Below are positions 2,568-10,008 of a stretch of 10,030 nt of DNA, in pieces. Numbering within the stretch: position 1 is the stretch's first letter; every line of letters begins with the position of its first letter. This stretch comes from a virus. Lineage: Duplodnaviria; Heunggongvirae; Uroviricota; Caudoviricetes. Under the pieces are notes generated by a model that was not told the DNA's origin, ran no database searches, and saw nothing but the letters and a program-made list of their open reading frames with translations. Location: the IMG/VR virus record IMGVR_UViG_2711768072_000012; one strand, given 5' to 3'. Made by a program: the position numbers and the translations under genes.

Positions 2568-2589
2568 AAGCACGGTGTTCGGGGGTTTT

Positions 2590-3552
2590 ATGAGCAGCAA
2601 GCTTCATGGTCTTGTCTGGGAAGGGTGCGCCTTCACCGGCATGATCTTATCCAGGGTGGCGGTTATGGCCCGTCTTGCAGACTACAGCAATGACGAGGGC
2701 GTGTCATGGCCTGCCATTGAAACTATCCGGCGTCAGATCGGTGCAAGAAGTGAATCCACAGTGAAATCGGCTATTGCAGAACTGGCGAAAGAGGGCTGGC
2801 TGACGAAGGAAGAGCGTAAGGTCGGTGGGCGTAATGTAAGCAATATCTATCGACTTAATGTGGAAAAACTCGAAGCAGCTGCGGCGGCGGCGCGTGAGTC
2901 ATATAAACCGAAAAGAAAAATTAGCCCGGCAAAAAATGACCCGTTAACAGTTGACCCGTCAAATATTGACCCCTCAACGGTTGACCCGTCAAATTTTGAT
3001 GGATCAACTGTTGATAAAAAACTGCCGATTAGGGGGGCGATGATTGACCCCGATCCGTCAGTATTAAAACCTGATCCGTCAGATAAAAGATCTTCTTGTC
3101 CGGACGCTTCGCAACCGGACCCGCAGACGGCTGAACAGGATTTTTTAACCCGACACCCTGACGCGGTTGTGTTCAGTGCGAAAAAACGCCAGTGGGGAAG
3201 TCAGGAAGATTTGGTGTGCGCACAGTGGATCTGGGGACGAATCGTGAGTCTTTACGAGCAGGCGGCCAGCTATGATGGCGAGATCACTAGACCGAAAGAA
3301 CCCAACTGGACAGCATGGGCCAATGACGTTCGCACAATGCGGATGCTGGATGGCAGAACTCACAGACAAATTTGTGAAATGTTTGGGCGTCTCCAGCGGG
3401 ATTCGTTCTGGGTAAAAAACATCATGAGTCCGGCAAAACTCCGGGAAAAATGGGATGAACTGGTTATCCGCCTGGGGCGTTCGCCTGCGCAGCGTTGCGT
3501 GAATCACATTTCTGAACCGGACACTGAAATACCGCCGGGATTCAGGGGGTGA
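2590..3552 (+). CDS. ydaU: YdaU-like replication initiator (lambda O-like replisome organiser) carrying internal iterons
   Basis: N-terminal winged-helix-like region, then a repetitive DPxxx linker encoded by tandem 15-bp DNA repeats. Sits immediately upstream of a DnaC-like loader gene. ATG 2590 chosen over the track's GTG at 2575. Confidence 0.75.
   Translation: MSSKLHGLVWEGCAFTGMILSRVAVMARLADYSNDEGVSWPAIETIRRQIGARSESTVKSAIAELAKEGWLTKEERKVGGRNVSNIYRLNVEKLEAAAAAARESYKPKRKISPAKNDPLTVDPSNIDPSTVDPSNFDGSTVDKKLPIRGAMIDPDPSVLKPDPSDKRSSCPDASQPDPQTAEQDFLTRHPDAVVFSAKKRQWGSQEDLVCAQWIWGRIVSLYEQAASYDGEITRPKEPNWTAWANDVRTMRMLDGRTHRQICEMFGRLQRDSFWVKNIMSPAKLREKWDELVIRLGRSPAQRCVNHISEPDTEIPPGFRG
2936..3025. 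repeat. Six tandem 15-bp iterons (consensus tTGACCCGTCAAnnn): probable prophage origin of replication inside ydaU
   Basis: Units start at 2936, 2951, 2966, 2981, 2996 and 3011; the last two are degenerate. An A-rich tract and four GATC sites (3002, 3052, 3073, 3089) follow. This is analogous to lambda ori inside gene O. Confidence 0.6.
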
Positions 3553-3558
3553 CGTGTC

Positions 3559-4305
3559 ATGAAAAACATTGCGGCAGTTGGGGTTCTTGAACGTATTCGC
3601 AGACTTGCACCACAGGGGTCGGTTCCACCGTACCGGACGGTGGAGGAGTGGCGGGAATGGCAACTTGCTGAAGGACGAAAACGCAGCGAGGAGATTAACC
3701 GCCAGAATCGCCAGTTGCGGGTGGAAAAAATCCTGAATCGTTCGGGCATCCAGCCTCTGCACAGCAAATGCTCGTTTGCAAATTATCAGGTGCAGAACGA
3801 CGGGCAAAAATACGCGCTGAGCCAGGCCAAATCCATAGCTGACGAACTGATGACCGGGTGCACGAATTTTGTGTTCAGCAGTAAAACCGGCACCGGGAAA
3901 AATCACCTTGCAGCGGCGATGGGCAACCGGCTGATGGTGAAGGGGCGCAGCGTGATTATCGTCACCGTGTCTGACGTCATGAGCGTGTTGCATGACAGCT
4001 ACGACAACGGCAAATCCGGGGAAAAATTTTTACAGGAGCTTTGCGGGGTTGATTTGCTGGTCCTGGATGAAATAGGCGTTCAGCGGGAGACGAAAAACGA
4101 GCAGGTGGTATTGCACCAGATAATTGATCGCCGGACAGCATCACTGTGCAGTGTCGGGATGTTAACAAACCTGAATCATGCCGCAATGAGTACGCTTCTT
4201 GGTGAGAGGATTATGGACCGCATGACCATGAACGGTGGTCGATGGGTGACATTTAACTGGGATAGCTGGCGTCCAAATGTCAGCAATATGAGGGTTGTGA
4301 AGTAA
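3559..4305 (+). CDS. ydaV: DnaC-like helicase loader (YdaV-like AAA+ ATPase)
   Basis: FSSKTGTGKNHLAAA and DLLVLDEIGVQRETKNEQVVLHQIIDRR align with the E. coli DnaC Walker A/B region as I recall it (FSGKPGTGKNHLAAA ... DLLVIDEIGVQ). ATG 3559 lies 6 nt after the ydaU stop. Confidence 0.85.
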   Translation: MKNIAAVGVLERIRRLAPQGSVPPYRTVEEWREWQLAEGRKRSEEINRQNRQLRVEKILNRSGIQPLHSKCSFANYQVQNDGQKYALSQAKSIADELMTGCTNFVFSSKTGTGKNHLAAAMGNRLMVKGRSVIIVTVSDVMSVLHDSYDNGKSGEKFLQELCGVDLLVLDEIGVQRETKNEQVVLHQIIDRRTASLCSVGMLTNLNHAAMSTLLGERIMDRMTMNGGRWVTFNWDSWRPNVSNMRVVK

Positions 4306-4326
4306 TTTTGTCCGGAGGAAATTTTA

Positions 4327-5097
4327 ATGGAAACCGTATCTGACGCACTGAAAGCACTGAAAAAAGCCTCTTCACATGTGGTGGCAGCTCGCCTTGGAAT
4401 CAGTCGTGAAGAGGCTGTCAACGAGCTGTGGGAACTCAAAAGAAATGGCGTCGTTGATAAAACTGGTCACACCTGGTTTCTGGCTGGCGAAGGTGAATCC
4501 CGGGTAACCGAAGAGCGGCCAGTAAAATCTGAAGCACAGGATATGCTGACCGGGGAGGTCGAACAAAAAGTTACCGCCGACATGATGATTGAGTTTATCG
4601 GTCAGGATGGGGCTAAAACGTGTGAGGAACTGGCGGGTAAGTTCGGTGTCAGTACTCGCAAGGTTGCTTCCACGCTGGCGGTGGTAACCGCAACGGGGCG
4701 GCTGGCACGCGTTAATCAGAACGGTAAATTTCGTTACTGCATGCCGGGCGATAATTTACCAGCAGAGCCGAAAGCCGCGCTGGTAACGGAAAGTGATGGT
4801 AAGGCCTTTCCTCAGCCAGCAGGTGCTGCGTTACCAGTCCGGGAAGCCGCAACACAGGAAAAAATTAAAACAGAAACTGTGGCGGACATTGTGCAGCCGT
4901 TGCCATCGTTTACCGAAACGCAAGCAGATGAGCTGATTTTTCCGTCCCTTCGCAGGGCAAACTTGGCGCTGCGCAGGGCGAAAAGTGATGTTCAGAAGTG
5001 GGAGCGAGTCTGCGCCGCGCTGCGGGAGCTGAACAAGCACCGGGATATTGTTCGACAGATTACTGATTCTTCCCGCCGTGTTGTATCGGAAAAGTGA
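4327..5097 (+). CDS. ydaW: YdaW-like prophage protein (256 aa)
   Basis: ORF follows ydaV in the Rac gene order. N-terminus METVSDALKALKKASSHVVAARLGISREEAVNELWELKRNG looks like a small winged-helix domain. Function unknown. Confidence 0.65.
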   Translation: METVSDALKALKKASSHVVAARLGISREEAVNELWELKRNGVVDKTGHTWFLAGEGESRVTEERPVKSEAQDMLTGEVEQKVTADMMIEFIGQDGAKTCEELAGKFGVSTRKVASTLAVVTATGRLARVNQNGKFRYCMPGDNLPAEPKAALVTESDGKAFPQPAGAALPVREAATQEKIKTETVADIVQPLPSFTETQADELIFPSLRRANLALRRAKSDVQKWERVCAALRELNKHRDIVRQITDSSRRVVSEK

Positions 5098-5112
5098 TTG
5101 CCGGAGGCGCTT

Positions 5113-5538
5113 ATGGCAAAAGTATTTACACAAGAAGAGCGGGAAAAAATTAAAGGGCAGGTTGTTGAACTTGTACGTCTGAGCGGTCGCGAGACGTTGC
5201 GGCAACTGGAAGCCAAGACAGGTGCGACAAGATATCTGATGAGTGTTCTCGCCAGAGAGCTGGTTGCCAGTGGCGATGTATACAACTCTGGTTACGGGTT
5301 ATTCCCGTCTGAACAGGCGCGTAAGGACTGGCAAAACGCCCGCAAAAAACTCTCAAGGGCAAATCTGAAGAAACCATCTGTGGTTGATCCGGACCTTATC
5401 TGGTCGTTACCAGACGGCGAAATACGCCGCTACGACAGGCGCCTGAATATAATCTGTCGCGAGTGCCGGAAGAGCGAAGCTATGCAGCGTGTACTGGCAT
5501 TTTATCAAGGAAATGTTAGGTATTTTAGACGTTACTAG
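5113..5538 (+). CDS. hypothetical prophage protein (141 aa)
   Basis: ATG at 5113 with GGAGG at 5102-5106 (6-nt spacer), 13 nt after the ydaW stop. Basic protein, no motif recognised. Confidence 0.55.
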   Translation: MAKVFTQEEREKIKGQVVELVRLSGRETLRQLEAKTGATRYLMSVLARELVASGDVYNSGYGLFPSEQARKDWQNARKKLSRANLKKPSVVDPDLIWSLPDGEIRRYDRRLNIICRECRKSEAMQRVLAFYQGNVRYFRRY

Positions 5539-5702: not shown

Positions 5703-6341
5703 ATGAAGATGAAAAACATGTCTGAAGTGTTGACCCAAGAAAAGCTTATTTTTGTTGCCCAGAGACTAAAGGCCCTCGCGCAGTCAGGCCTGACCTATTC
5801 AAAAGACGTCTTTGACAAGGAACGCTATGAAGCCTTGCGTGAAATTGCCGCTGGACTGCTGAGTTCGCAGTTTGATATTAGCCGCAATGATTTGTTTCAT
5901 GTATCGGAAACGGGTTACGCGACGCCCAAAACAGATGTGCGTGCGTTTATCCTGCGTAATAATCGTATTCTGATGGTGAAAGAGGCTGCAGATGGATTAT
6001 GGAGTCTTCCTGGCGGATGGGCAGATGTTGGAGATACACCTTCTGAAGCTGTGCGTCGAGAGGTCGAAGAAGAAACCGGATTAAAAGTCAGAGTGACTAA
6101 ACTATTGGGAGTTTGGGATCGTAATCTTCACGGCCATCCGCCTTTACCCTGGCATGTTTACAAGCTGATTTTTCTCTGTGAAGAAGTAGGTGGCAGCCTG
6201 TCAATCAGCCATGAGTCACTCGATGCTGATTTTTTTGATGTCAACGACCTGCCTGAATTGTCGCTTTCAAGAATTGTGCCTGAGCAGATTGCTGTCAGCC
6301 TGAGAGTAGCGAAAGGTGATGAAAAAACATGGTTTGATTAA
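5703..6341 (+). CDS. NUDIX hydrolase with N-terminal extension
   Basis: Nudix box GGWADVGDTPSEAVRREVEEETGL fits Gx5[E/D]x7REUxEExGU with D at the first acidic position. An ~80-aa N-terminal domain precedes it. Start is ambiguous between ATG 5703, 5709 and 5718; SD is weak and the upstream region is AT-rich. Confidence 0.8.
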   Translation: MKMKNMSEVLTQEKLIFVAQRLKALAQSGLTYSKDVFDKERYEALREIAAGLLSSQFDISRNDLFHVSETGYATPKTDVRAFILRNNRILMVKEAADGLWSLPGGWADVGDTPSEAVRREVEEETGLKVRVTKLLGVWDRNLHGHPPLPWHVYKLIFLCEEVGGSLSISHESLDADFFDVNDLPELSLSRIVPEQIAVSLRVAKGDEKTWFD

Positions 6342-6370
6342 CTTTCTTCTGCAACCATTAAGGAATGGCA

Positions 6371-7009
6371 ATGATATTCAACGCTAAGGGTTTTTTATTC
6401 GATATGGACGGTACGCTGGTTGATTCAACAGCCGTAGTGGAAAGCGTCTGGAGAGATTTTTGTGCAGAATACGGTCTTGATACTCAGGCTGTGATTGCTT
6501 ACGCACACGGGCGGCAAACGATTGATACACTGACGCATTTTATTGGTGCAGGTGAGAAAACCAATAAAATCGCGGCCTCACTCGAAGAGGTTGAAATCAA
6601 CACGACAGAAGGCGTTACTGAAGTAAAGGGGGCCGCTGCACTCTTATCAAAACTGCCACCGGATAGCTGGGCACTTGTCACTTCTGCAGGCAGAATGCTT
6701 GCCGAAAACAGGATGAAAGCGGCTAATCTCCCCTTACCCATAGTAATGGTGTGTGCAGAAGATGTAATGACGGGAAAACCAAGTCCCGAGGGTTACATCA
6801 AAGCAGCTTTGGCTTTGGGCCTTGAGCCTGGTGAATGCGTGGTATTTGAGGATGCATCTGCGGGTATAAAAGCAGGGCTGGCAAGTGGAGCTTCGGTAAT
6901 AGCTGTTCAGCCTGACGCTCTGGGATCATCTGAAGCCCATGCCGTCAGCGAACTGTCTGACATTATGGTCAAGATTTCCGGAGAACGTTTCAATATCATC
7001 TGTGGTTAA
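6371..7009 (+). CDS. HAD-superfamily hydrolase (beta-phosphoglucomutase/phosphatase-like)
   Basis: HAD motifs: FDMDGTLVDS (motif I), VTSAG, TGKPSPEGY (Lys motif) and FEDASAGIKAGLASGA. ATG 6371 is preferred because AAGGA at 6360-6364 gives a 6-nt spacer; the track start is 6365. Lies 23-29 nt after the NUDIX stop. Confidence 0.8.
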   Translation: MIFNAKGFLFDMDGTLVDSTAVVESVWRDFCAEYGLDTQAVIAYAHGRQTIDTLTHFIGAGEKTNKIAASLEEVEINTTEGVTEVKGAAALLSKLPPDSWALVTSAGRMLAENRMKAANLPLPIVMVCAEDVMTGKPSPEGYIKAALALGLEPGECVVFEDASAGIKAGLASGASVIAVQPDALGSSEAHAVSELSDIMVKISGERFNIICG

Positions 7010-7398: not shown

Positions 7399-7439
7399 GG
7401 CTGCGGGTGCTTGAGGCTATCTGTCTCAGGCATGAACAC

Positions 7440-7530
7440 CAAAGGCAGATAGAGAAAAGCCCCAGTTAACATTACGCGTCCTGCAAGACGCTTAACATTA
7501 ATCTGAGGCCATATCTATGCTCTACACACG
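7440..7530 (-). ncRNA. sok: predicted Sok-like antisense RNA region (approximate bounds)
   Basis: Inferred only from hok/sok locus architecture: the antisense RNA is normally complementary to the mok leader and start. Minus strand around 7530-7560 has a weak TTGCCT-17-TAACCT promoter-like pair. Ends are not determined. Confidence 0.3.
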
Positions 7531-7729
7531 TAGGTTAGCCTCTTACGTGCCGAAAGGCAAGGAGAAGCAGGCTATGAAGCAGCAAAAGGCGATGCTAATC
7601 GCCCTGATCGTCATCTGTTTAACCGTCATTGTGACGGCACTGGTAACGAGGAAAGACCTCTGCGAGGTACGAATCCGAACCGGCCAGACGGAGGTCGCTG
7701 TCTTCACAGCTTACGAACCTGAGGAGTAA
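7517..7729 (+). CDS. mok: mok-like upstream reading frame, here in frame with hok
   Basis: ATG at 7517 opens a 70-codon frame that runs into and through hok in the same frame. The leader resembles the mok leader of hok/sok loci. Confidence 0.35.
   Translation: MLYTRRLASYVPKGKEKQAMKQQKAMLIALIVICLTVIVTALVTRKDLCEVRIRTGQTEVAVFTAYEPEE
7574..7729 (+). CDS. hok: Hok/Gef family type I toxin (51 aa)
   Basis: MKQQKAMLIALIVICLTVIVTALVTRKDLCEVRIRTGQTEVAVFTAYEPEE has the Hok TM segment and the conserved TRKxLCE...R.G..EVA.F.AYE pattern. By recollection it is closest to HokD/RelF. SD AAGGAG at 7559-7564 with a 9-nt spacer. Confidence 0.85.
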   Translation: MKQQKAMLIALIVICLTVIVTALVTRKDLCEVRIRTGQTEVAVFTAYEPEE

Positions 7730-7797
7730 GAGACCAGGCGAGGGAGAAATCCCTCGCCACCTCTGATGTGTCAGGCATCCTCAACGCACCCGCACTT

Positions 7798-7820
7798 AAC
7801 CCGCTTCGGCGGGTTTTTTA
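7798..7820 (+). terminator. intrinsic terminator (UUCG tetraloop hairpin + T6) ending the hok transcript
   Basis: TAACCCGCTTCGGCGGGTTTTTT: stem CCCGC/GCGGG, extendable to 7 bp, with a TTCG loop and six Ts. Confidence 0.7.
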
Positions 7821-7867
7821 TTGGTTGACAAAATTATGAATATGCACCAATATCTTGGTTGACAAAA
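7821..7867 (+). promoter_or_regulatory. Two direct copies of TTGGTTGACAAAA (each containing a TTGACA -35 hexamer): candidate promoter/operator of the downstream cassette
   Basis: Identical 13-mers at 7821-7833 and 7855-7867, 34 bp apart, between the hok terminator and the first cassette gene. Confidence 0.4.
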
Positions 7868-7902
7868 GTCGTTTTTTGCACGGATTAGGCGGAGAAGTGT
7901 CT

Positions 7903-8496
7903 ATGCAGAACCATCCATTCCCTTGGGAGTTCTTTCCTGAGTTAACAGAGGAGCGTTTAACCATTATAGCTGAGGAGTTGCTCAGGATACAGGATATTAC
8001 TCATGAGTTATTGTCATCGCCCTATGATGATAATTACACTCGTGGTGGTTGTACATTTGGGCGTCAGCGGCAGGCGTTGCTACAAATGTGCGTACGAAAG
8101 ACATATGACTGGTTAAGACTACTTAATCCTGGCATGGATCTTACGTTTTCAATTGGGAATGTCCCTATTCGTTTCTTTACTGATGACGCAGATAACCCCA
8201 AGAAACGCGGTTTTTTCAAAAGAAATGATGCTGATCGACTCTTTGAGTCAGAGGAGACTACTCCAACTATGCATCGCTTTGTGGTTGAAAAGCCTGAATT
8301 TGAAGGCGAGGGTGGTAGAGTCATTTTTAATGGCTATAACGTGTTTGGTGAGATCGTGTCAACTTGGACATATGGTGCGGACCGTGTTGTTATGCTGAAC
8401 TCTGTCGATGATGTACCTCCAGCACCGGTACCTATCGAACTAGAACCTATCAGTGCGTCTAAGACTGAGAAGGAAAAGAAACAAAATAGCAAATAG
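7903..8496 (+). CDS. uncharacterised protein (~197 aa), upstream partner of the HTH-peptidase; candidate effector/toxin
   Basis: ATG at 7903 with GGAG at 7891-7894 (8-nt spacer); the track's 7855 start is TTG inside the repeat. Acidic, no TM segment, no catalytic motif recognised, with a Pro/Lys-rich tail. Stop lies 10 nt before the next gene. Confidence 0.65.
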   Translation: MQNHPFPWEFFPELTEERLTIIAEELLRIQDITHELLSSPYDDNYTRGGCTFGRQRQALLQMCVRKTYDWLRLLNPGMDLTFSIGNVPIRFFTDDADNPKKRGFFKRNDADRLFESEETTPTMHRFVVEKPEFEGEGGRVIFNGYNVFGEIVSTWTYGADRVVMLNSVDDVPPAPVPIELEPISASKTEKEKKQNSK

Positions 8497-8506
8497 TGGG
8501 TGAAAT

Positions 8507-9628
8507 GTGTTTAACGGTACTAATTTAAGACTTGCTCGTCTGTATCACGAGCTATCTCTGGAGCAGGTTGCTGAGAAGGTTGAAAAAACACGCCAGTATG
8601 TACAGCGACTGGAGTCTGGTTCAGCTACTCCATCCCCAGAGCTTATAAATAAATTAGCCGAGGTTTTGCGCGTGAAGCCCGCCTTTTTCGAAGGGCAGGA
8701 ACATTCTCCTGTTAATGAAGAGATTGTACATTTTCGTAAACGCGCCTCGACAAGGATGTCAACGAAGCTATCAACACTCGCTAAGGCTGAGTTTTATCGT
8801 CGTTTTATTGATGTATTTGAAGATAACCTTAATTTGTCACCTGTTCGATTTCCTGAATTTCGTGTCCATACACAAGAAGATATCGAGCGAGCGGCAGAAA
8901 AATGTCGTATTGAGTGGGGCTTAGGCTTTGGCCCAATTGAAAATATGACTCGCCTTGCCGAGAAACTTGGGGCGTTTGTTACTTCATTTGACTCCGTTTC
9001 GGATGAAGTAGATGCACTGTCTGTTCCTCTGCGAAGGCCTTTTATTGTTCGAAATACAGCTAAAAATTCACCTTGTAGGCAACGCTTTGATATTGCTCAT
9101 GAGGTTGCCCATTTGATTCTTCATGAAGGAATTTCTACTGGGGATAGATTAACTGAATCCCAGGCAAACCGTTTTGCCTCTGCTCTGTTGCTTCCCAGAA
9201 CGTCGATGGCGAAATATTTTCCAAGACCTGTGGGGGGGAGGATAAATTGGCAGGGACTAAGCCAATTTAAGTTGACATGGAAAGTAAGTAAGGCTGCCAT
9301 TGTTTACAGGGCTCATCAATTAGGACTTTTGACTGATGAGCAGTACAGAACTGCATTTATGGGGTTGAAACGGAAAGGGGAAGCTATTGATGAAAAAGAA
9401 GATTATCTAATCCCTCATGAGCGTCCTGAGTTATTCCGTCGGGCTTTATCGTTTTTATTTGAAGAGTTAGGATACGACCCACAGCGTATAGCTGATGAAA
9501 TGGATATAGAAGTGGACATTTTTTATGAGTTAGTAGGAGATGATCTTCCTGCGGTTCATGAACTGCCAGGAAGTGGTGATGTTGTTTCACTACAATCTTA
9601 CCGAACTCTTAGAGGCAAAATTCACTAG
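8507..9628 (+). CDS. XRE-family HTH fused to ImmA/IrrE-type (M78, COG2856-like) zinc metallopeptidase (373 aa)
   Basis: N-terminal HTH (LSLEQVAEKVEKTRQYVQRLESGSATPSPELINKLAEVL). Zinc-binding HEVAH in IAHEVAHLILHE followed by ESQANRFASALLLP, the typical ImmA/IrrE signature. GTG start at 8507 with GGGTG upstream. Confidence 0.85.
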   Translation: MFNGTNLRLARLYHELSLEQVAEKVEKTRQYVQRLESGSATPSPELINKLAEVLRVKPAFFEGQEHSPVNEEIVHFRKRASTRMSTKLSTLAKAEFYRRFIDVFEDNLNLSPVRFPEFRVHTQEDIERAAEKCRIEWGLGFGPIENMTRLAEKLGAFVTSFDSVSDEVDALSVPLRRPFIVRNTAKNSPCRQRFDIAHEVAHLILHEGISTGDRLTESQANRFASALLLPRTSMAKYFPRPVGGRINWQGLSQFKLTWKVSKAAIVYRAHQLGLLTDEQYRTAFMGLKRKGEAIDEKEDYLIPHERPELFRRALSFLFEELGYDPQRIADEMDIEVDIFYELVGDDLPAVHELPGSGDVVSLQSYRTLRGKIH

Positions 9629-9631
9629 GCA

Positions 9632-9654
9632 TAACCCGCTTCGGCGGGTTTTTT
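9632..9654 (+). terminator. intrinsic terminator identical to the one at 7798-7820
   Basis: TAACCCGCTTCGGCGGGTTTTTT, a 23/23 identical copy, 3 nt after the cassette stop. Confidence 0.7.
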
Positions 9655-9729
9655 GTTTTACGTATTCTGGTTTACAATCTACAGGCCAGCCTGAACAACT
9701 GGCACCTGCTGCGCCAGCAGAGAAAGACG

Positions 9730-10008
9730 ATGGCGCACAATACCAAATCACACAATTCTGATAATTCAGCTGTCTTTGCCAGCAGGCACGGGCGGCGTTC
9801 CCGCACATTCAAATCTGATTGGTACCAGCATCCCCCATGTACTGAAGAACAAGCTGAATGGCTAATTCAGTGCTACCGCAGACACGGATACGAGATTAAG
9901 AAAGCCCTCAGCCTCGATTATCGTCACTGGATAATCTCCGTCAGGCTTCCTTACTCTGAACGCCCACCGCGTCCGTCCCGCACATTCCAGCAACGCATCT
10001 GGAGGTAA
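9730..10008 (+). CDS. hypothetical basic protein (92 aa)
   Basis: ORF after the second terminator with a weak SD. Contains an internal repeat (RRSRTF / RPSRTF). Its stop overlaps GGAGG (10001-10005) followed by GTG at 10010, which may start the next gene running off the window. Confidence 0.35.
   Translation: MAHNTKSHNSDNSAVFASRHGRRSRTFKSDWYQHPPCTEEQAEWLIQCYRRHGYEIKKALSLDYRHWIISVRLPYSERPPRPSRTFQQRIWR

Follow-up and report, generated by a model that had tools for sequence, protein, structure and literature searches.

A probable RosmerTA toxin-antitoxin module carried as an accessory cassette in an Escherichia coli lambdoid prophage

A two-gene cassette downstream of hok

The DNA analysed here, a stretch of 10,030 nucleotides from the IMG/VR virus record IMGVR_UViG_2711768072_000012 (Caudoviricetes; hereafter the window), corresponds to the early part of a lambdoid prophage, and directly past its hok/sok locus it carries two genes on the plus strand, gene A (7903-8496) and gene B (8507-9628), the second of which starts 10 nucleotides past the stop of the first. 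An initial annotation, made from the sequence alone, had singled out this tightly linked pair as a candidate toxin-antitoxin or anti-phage module, in which an upstream effector would be held in check by a downstream antitoxin combining an XRE helix-turn-helix (HTH) with an M78 peptidase, by analogy with RosmerTA. We consider it very likely that the two genes, rmrT and rmrA, are indeed a RosmerTA toxin-antitoxin module, carried as a 1.8-kb accessory cassette ('moron') in an E. coli lambdoid prophage and working as proposed below. The coding features of the cassette are as follows.

7903..8496, plus strand: rmrT (gene A), predicted toxin of 197 residues (WP_001179381.1) with a modelled alpha/beta fold; ATG start, GGAG 8 nucleotides upstream
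8507..9628, plus strand: rmrA (gene B), antitoxin and predicted autorepressor of 373 residues (WP_000481765.1, E101_02644 of strain E101); GTG start
8525..8689, plus strand: XRE HTH of RmrA, residues 7-61 (Pfam HTH_3)
8957..9313, plus strand: M78 Zn-peptidase of RmrA, residues 151-269 (Pfam Peptidase_M78)
9098..9157, plus strand: metal-binding and catalytic motif HEVAH of RmrA (residues 198-202) together with E217, recognised by invariance in homologues

The same two reading frames are annotated by RefSeq in identical DNA of strain UMNF18, and both proteins of the window are identical to the UMNF18 proteins (WP_001179381.1 for gene A, WP_000481765.1 for gene B). The product of gene A is, as first described, an acidic protein of 197 residues (isoelectric point 5.0; 32 acidic versus 24 basic residues). 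It matches the PADLOC RmrT model PDLC03929 over its full length (E 5.5e-93, positions 1-197 of 198), this being the sole RmrT model matched, while the product of gene B matches the PADLOC RmrA model PDLC03943 (E 4.3e-201, positions 1-368 of 370) and, at E-values from 4.6e-72 to 4.1e-31, 13 further RmrA models. Both proteins being matched end to end, the pair is therefore a RosmerTA system. Membership was judged on a match to an RmrA model with both HTH and M78 domains, an adjacent match to an RmrT model, and a conserved, co-oriented pair, all of which are found here. The suggestion that the 197-residue protein has no recognisable domain and may belong to an undescribed family fails: neither Pfam nor NCBIfam gives a match for gene A, and Pfam likewise gives none for 95 diverse family members, but the protein has the full-length RmrT match and belongs to PHROG 5786, a family of 'unknown function'.

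RosmerTA was defined by Millman et al. 2022, with the E. coli OLC-716 system as the verified example: it has anti-phage activity, and its version deleted for rmrA could not be transformed. The family is defined by the antitoxin, whereas its toxins are diverse (Ernits et al., PMC10440598), and the RmrT models are mutually unrelated.

A module of this kind has already been met with in E. coli E101, where clpP is essential owing to a prophage-borne putative toxin-antitoxin module (Rousset et al., bioRxiv 10.1101/2020.05.25.114553; Nat Microbiol 2021). Its upstream gene is E101_02645 (WP_001179380.1, 'no predicted domain') and its downstream gene E101_02644 (WP_000481765.1); suppressors of clpP essentiality had either lost the prophage or acquired a T46S substitution in the toxin, silencing of the toxin gave a partial rescue of clpP knock-down, and transfer of the module to K-12 made clpP essential there too, except with the T46S variant (10.1101/2020.05.25.114553). 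The antitoxin of the window is the very same protein as E101_02644, and the toxin of the window is probably identical to the E101 toxin. The reading as a toxin-antitoxin pair is accordingly upheld by the full-length PADLOC matches, but not the novelty claimed for it: the antitoxin is a known protein, the accession of the toxin adjoins that of E101_02645, and the module has already been put to the test.

Domains of RmrA and the possibility of a prophage regulator

The initial annotation had read gene B as a fusion of an XRE HTH and an M78 peptidase with a HEVAH motif, and Pfam finds both domains where expected (HTH_3, Peptidase_M78). Across 31 RmrA homologues with 42-77% identity to RmrA of the window, H198, E199, H202 and E217 never vary (residues 217-230 of the window's protein read ESQANRFASALLLP); this invariance implies that the site is under selection and probably active. 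RmrA also matches the spr1629 family (NCBIfam NF052239, an equivalog model) with 174.3 bits (E 4e-51), which lies under the cut-off of 335 bits, so that gene B is homologous to this family without being its equivalog. The tripeptide H75-F76-R77 (nucleotides 8729-8737), which lies in the segment joining the HTH to the peptidase, is invariant in the same 31 homologues as well, and could be a cleavage or recognition site.

Such a domain composition raises the question of whether the HTH-peptidase is a regulator of the prophage itself, that is, an anti-repressor protease of the ImmA/IrrE type which would cleave a phage or host repressor upon a signal, gene A then being an accessory or sensor protein and not a toxin. 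The pairing of domains is that of ImmA/IrrE-type regulators, the catalytic site is invariant and there are weak matches to the capP and capH models (E 2.8e-17 and 5e-10); the full-length RmrA models, however, score far above those for CapP and CapH. Silencing of the upstream gene partly relieves lethality, and the T46S variant does not confer clpP essentiality in K-12, both of which speak against this reading. The prophage has a separate immunity region of the cI/cro type 6 kb upstream of the pair, and the pair travels as a unit among unrelated elements (lambdoid prophages, P2-like prophages and integrative islands); for these two reasons we reject the HTH-peptidase as the prophage's own switch, a role that we hold to be very improbable.

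Linkage and spread of the pair

Relatives of gene A fall into 80 clusters in a word-index search, all of about 197-200 residues and all labelled 'hypothetical', and a profile of the family gave 424 matches at E <=0.001 among 1.84 billion representatives, nearly all of them single-domain proteins of about 200 residues. With one genome taken per species, 32 loci encode a relative of gene A, and these belong to Gamma- and Betaproteobacteria (Enterobacterales, Rhodocyclaceae, Gallionella, Burkholderiaceae, Xanthomonadales and Methylomonas). An RmrA homologue of 42-77% identity lies directly downstream, on the same strand and within a few dozen nucleotides, in 31 of the 32, the unpaired locus being a truncated fragment of gene A; the genomic linkage that the original proposal had asked for is borne out.

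A location in defence islands or prophage moron sites had also been proposed as a check, and two loci are in keeping with it. In Serratia marcescens the pair (8001-9729 of the locus) is found in a P2-like prophage, in a variable slot with the gpA replication gene on one side and the portal and terminase genes on the other; this slot is reportedly among the P2 hotspots that Rousset and colleagues described in 2022 for antiviral systems. The Aeromonas veronii pair resides in an island delimited by an integrase, next to genes for an HNH protein, a methyltransferase and a DEAD/UvrD helicase of 1732 residues. Both settings are suggestive of a defence role.

These settings bear on whether the pair could be an addiction or stabilisation module only, like hok/sok, which would have no part in defence and whose longer-lived toxin would kill any cell in which the prophage is lost or no longer expressed. 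The cassette does adjoin another post-segregational killing locus, the sole experiments on the module demonstrate conditional lethality and not defence, and in the literature searched we found no report of a phage-defence assay for the RmrT family of the window. On the other hand, an accessory slot of a P2-like prophage and a defence-type island both harbour homologous pairs, all RosmerTA systems examined to date gave protection from some phages, and a role in addiction would not preclude one in defence. An exclusive function in addiction seems to us unlikely, and we retain the RosmerTA interpretation with its proposed defence component.

The lack of a reported defence assay is one of several points that weigh against this interpretation. 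The identity of the toxin with that of E101 rests on an adjacent accession number, an identical partner protein and the shared T46. RmrA of the window is 31% identical to OLC-716 RmrA over 311 residues (E 2e-38), which is low, and RmrT of the window (197 residues) has no significant alignment with OLC-716 RmrT (239 residues). With gene A as tblastn query, 50,697 phage records yielded a single weak match, to a Salmonella genomic record (28.8% identity, E 4e-7), and megablast of the cassette DNA against the same records found no copy of it, the flanks alone being matched.

A conserved predicted promoter with two operator-like elements

A repeat search recovered TTGGTTGACAAAA twice before gene A, 34 nucleotides apart, a feature that the initial annotation had passed over. 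The pattern common to both copies, TTGACA-N12-TGCA, has two matches in the window (7825-7846 and 7859-7880) as against 0.14 expected by chance, and it defines, together with a comparison of related loci, the following features.

7825..7846, plus strand: operator-like element O1, TTGACA-N12-TGCA, whose TTGACA is the predicted -35 (pattern and locus comparison)
7848..7853, plus strand: predicted -10 hexamer CAATAT, 17 nucleotides past the -35 (locus comparison)
7859..7880, plus strand: operator-like element O2, second TTGACA-N12-TGCA, 34 nucleotides downstream of O1 (repeat and locus comparison)

In the upstream regions compared, a 22-bp element TTGACA-N12-(T)GCA of constant length recurs as two tandem copies 31-34 nucleotides apart, and the surroundings are not conserved. 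All 31 related loci examined have O1 in the corresponding position before gene A; O2 keeps the exact pattern in 28 of them and is degenerate in the remaining 3. The -10 hexamer reads.A..AT across the aligned regions, A2, A5 and T6 each reaching 70% consensus; it is CAATAT in the window and GATTAT in several Betaproteobacteria. A generic sigma-70 scan predicted no promoter before gene A, having missed CAATAT because only 3 of its 6 bases match the consensus, and the predicted promoter of the cassette was recognised solely through the comparison of loci. We also considered the second TTGACA (7859) as the -35 of a second promoter and rejected it, there being no conserved -10 after the second copy.

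Taken together, these patterns point to one sigma-70 promoter with two putative operators for the HTH of RmrA, O1 covering the -35 and the spacer, and O2 the region of the start, where it would span the predicted transcription start and the 5' untranslated region. The two elements are spaced by about three helical turns.

The cassette as an insertion

The cassette had been described as richer in AT than the replication genes, by eye, and computed values agree: its G+C content is 43.0%, against 51.8% for the replication genes (2575-5538). It had also been described as bracketed by terminators sharing 23 nucleotides, and indeed a direct repeat of 26 nucleotides with one mismatch (7797-7822 and 9632-9657), its first 23 nucleotides identical, brackets the cassette, each copy consisting of a 7-bp GC-rich hairpin followed by a run of T.

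7797..7822, plus strand: left terminator copy, which terminates hok and delimits the insertion on the left (repeat; terminator scan, with 5 GC pairs in the 7-bp stem; fold energy -13.1 kcal/mol)
9632..9657, plus strand: right terminator copy, which is the end of the operon and the right edge of the insertion (repeat; terminator scan; fold energy -13.8 kcal/mol)

Many phage records carry both flanks of the cassette side by side. The empty site is seen in phage vB_EcoS-640R1 (ON470612), in which hok is followed by one terminator copy and then by the sequence that follows the right-hand copy in the window (…TTCTGGTTTACAAT…CAGCCTGAACAACTGGCACCTGCTGCGCCAGCAGAGA…). This single terminator at the empty site tells us that the window bears a 1.8-kb insertion, which comprises the predicted promoter, the two genes and the second terminator copy. 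The two-copy arrangement is confined to E. coli loci in the hok context.

Of 5426 complete E. coli genomes, 23 contain the same cassette, at 99.5-99.9% identity and in every case on the chromosome; the carriers include strains, such as UMNF18, TW11681 and TW10598, that we take to be enterotoxigenic E. coli (ETEC)-type isolates. In the four loci examined the cassette always comes after hok, while the genes upstream vary (ParA, two hypothetical genes, DUF4014-type genes or, in the window, a NUDIX/HAD pair). In UMNF18 the hok upstream of the otherwise identical cassette (8806-8907 of the locus) is annotated as a truncated pseudogene, which means that the junction between hok and RosmerTA persists despite the decay of hok. 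The UMNF18 prophage, moreover, abuts a CP4-like island with cbtA/yeeU.

Family and predicted structure of RmrT

A profile of gene A compared with all PDB sequences, at E-values up to 10, gave no match. The quality of the AlphaFold2 model of RmrT depended on the alignment: the predicted local distance difference test score (pLDDT) was 81.5 with 49 sequences and rose to 91.2, with a predicted template modelling score of 0.79, with 95 more diverse sequences. Foldseek, one of the structural checks foreseen by the initial annotation, returned nothing below E 0.1 against the PDB. In the model two long helices (16-36 and 44-64) are packed on a six-stranded sheet, followed by a less ordered tail, and the predicted structure resembles, at weak scores, the restriction-endonuclease (PD-(D/E)XK) fold, a resemblance that we take as a weak lead.

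Among polar residues, D42, R54, R90 and R125 alone are retained in 75% or more of the 95 members; D79, D94, D95, E129 and K130 are conserved among close relatives only. As the fold scores are weak and the catalytic D...(D/E)xK is not conserved in the 95 members, we did not file RmrT as a PD-(D/E)XK nuclease, and its membership in the classical family was rejected. The hypothesis that RmrT is nevertheless such a nuclease, degrading DNA once released, has the fold resemblance in its favour and the missing catalytic signature against it; we regard it as possible but doubtful. Because that signature is lacking, we favour a mode of action by binding and poisoning, or an atypical active site around D42, R54, R90 and R125, over a classical nuclease. 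The toxin of the window has T46, the position of the E101 suppressor, within a conserved DDNYTRG loop in which Y45 is invariant and N44 and R47 are nearly so, and this D42-G48 loop is the best candidate for the functional site of RmrT.

It is worth recording that 12 separate stretches of a 5046-residue protein (P0224) match the toxin profile, all of them within profile positions 4-39, which correspond to the N-terminal helix; repetitive or coiled-coil sequence, and not common descent, is the probable source of this match.

Flanking genes and other features of the window

In the window a cI-like repressor gene on the minus strand is followed by cro/cII-like, O-like and DnaC-like replication genes, DUF1627, DUF977, a NUDIX/HAD pair and hok/mok/sok. 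The cassette itself belongs to the late-early region and is set between the hok terminator on the left and a 92-residue open reading frame (ORF), DUF968, rusA and Q genes on the right.

7405..7729, plus strand: hok/mok/sok type I toxin-antitoxin locus, context directly upstream and outside the cassette

The hok assignment stems from the ORF at 7517-7729, which matches Pfam HOK_GEF (E 2.9e-23), and that of sok from Rfam RF01794 at 7405-7579 (114.7 bits). Between the replication genes and hok, at 5703-7009, a NUDIX hydrolase with a Nudix_N domain adjoins a HAD-family hydrolase, at a position taken up in other cassette carriers by ParA or hypothetical genes. Of 5426 complete E. coli genomes, only 18 have 80% or more of this stretch, with 12 records at >=99% identity; it is possibly a further accessory ('moron') slot that serves nucleotide metabolism.

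To the right of the cassette, the 92-residue ORF (9730-10008) belongs to PHROG 1212, of unknown function, and some phage records give it the label 'toxin to Rem' or 'rem'. Within it a DNA repeat, GCGGCGTTCCCGCACATTC / GCGTCCGTCCCGCACATTC, with a spacing of 177 nucleotides, encodes an R-x-SRTF peptide twice. Two near-palindromes, ATTACTCATGAGTTAT at 7996-8011 and GCGGTTCATGAACTGC at 9551-9566, lie one within each coding region of the cassette and are probably due to chance.

A proposed working of the module

Judging from conservation, a single promoter (-35 TTGACA at 7825, -10 CAATAT at 7848) would transcribe rmrT and then rmrA, up to the terminator at 9633, and dimers of RmrA would bind the two 22-bp elements through the XRE HTH and thereby keep expression low. 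The upstream protein would be toxic and normally restrained, as may be extrapolated from E101, where the module has an antitoxin of the same accession (Rousset et al.). Neutralisation would require RmrA with an intact Zn-peptidase site as well as ClpXP, and most probably free RmrT would be eliminated or passed on to be degraded, instead of just being sequestered. A loss of control, for instance upon depletion of clpP, would then free RmrT and stop growth. By analogy with other RosmerTA systems, it is tempting to propose that phage infection breaks this control, so that RmrT arrests the cell and the infection is aborted, the lysogen and its prophage being in this way guarded against superinfection.

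A more specific version may be put forward, in which the RmrT family would have a restriction-endonuclease fold deprived of the nuclease triad and would poison a host protein or nucleic-acid target via the D42-G48 loop; RmrT would be neutralised by a proteolytic relay, the Zn-peptidase of RmrA clipping or presenting the toxin and ClpXP destroying it, and the trigger would be interference of a phage with ClpXP or RmrA. All these elements together make a speculative proposal that is rather improbable as a whole. If true, such a relay would be an antitoxin mechanism other than simple sequestration.

Published work already covers the class of system, the gene pair and the way in which it behaves as toxin and antidote, and the pair is picked up by standard defence-finding tools. 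What is new here is the conserved predicted promoter with its tandem 22-bp operator-like elements, the empty-site comparison and a confident model of the toxin. The finding serves chiefly to annotate correctly an accessory cassette in prophages of ETEC-type and related E. coli, and the value that is left lies in the mechanism of RosmerTA, namely the action of the toxin, the need for ClpXP, the substrate of the peptidase and the phage signal that releases the toxin, for which the double operator and the toxin model offer concrete starting points for experiments.

Comparison with known systems

The E101 module is like the cassette of the window in its identical antitoxin (WP_000481765.1), in a toxin of adjacent accession that has T46, and in being prophage-borne with an upstream toxin devoid of recognisable domain; its prophage backbone may differ, the upstream genes varying among carriers. 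OLC-716 RosmerTA shares the two-gene layout and an RmrA made of XRE HTH, M78 peptidase and C-terminal region, at the distances given above. The RmrTA of Gordonia phage Kita is likewise a phage-borne RosmerTA with an ImmA-type antitoxin, a toxin without detectable homologues and a narrow-spectrum defence (Ernits et al. 2023). The Kita toxin, however, is membrane-targeted and depolarises the membrane, whereas the RmrT model of the window is a compact alpha/beta domain in which no membrane-targeting region was noted, a transmembrane prediction not having been run. Anti-phage activity is known for OLC-716 and Kita, whose toxins are unrelated to RmrT of the window.

In Streptococcus pneumoniae, RipAB (Spr1630/Spr1629), another pair of the Rosmer family, requires ClpX for neutralisation, which parallels the clpP dependence of E101; its toxin RipA poisons the DnaN sliding clamp (PMC12795458), whereas nothing ties RmrT of the window to DnaN. 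By transposon sequencing of Pectobacteriaceae, rmrA and clpX were essential only where RosmerTA is present, in three strains. Beyond RosmerTA, the M78 Zn-peptidase and the XRE HTH are also brought together in ImmR/ImmA of ICEBs1 and DdrO/IrrE of Deinococcus for a signal-responsive proteolytic control, in which repressor and protease are separate proteins that govern element excision or DNA-damage genes and have no toxin partner. RmrA of the window, in contrast, has HTH and peptidase fused into one protein, and it is strictly paired with an upstream toxin.

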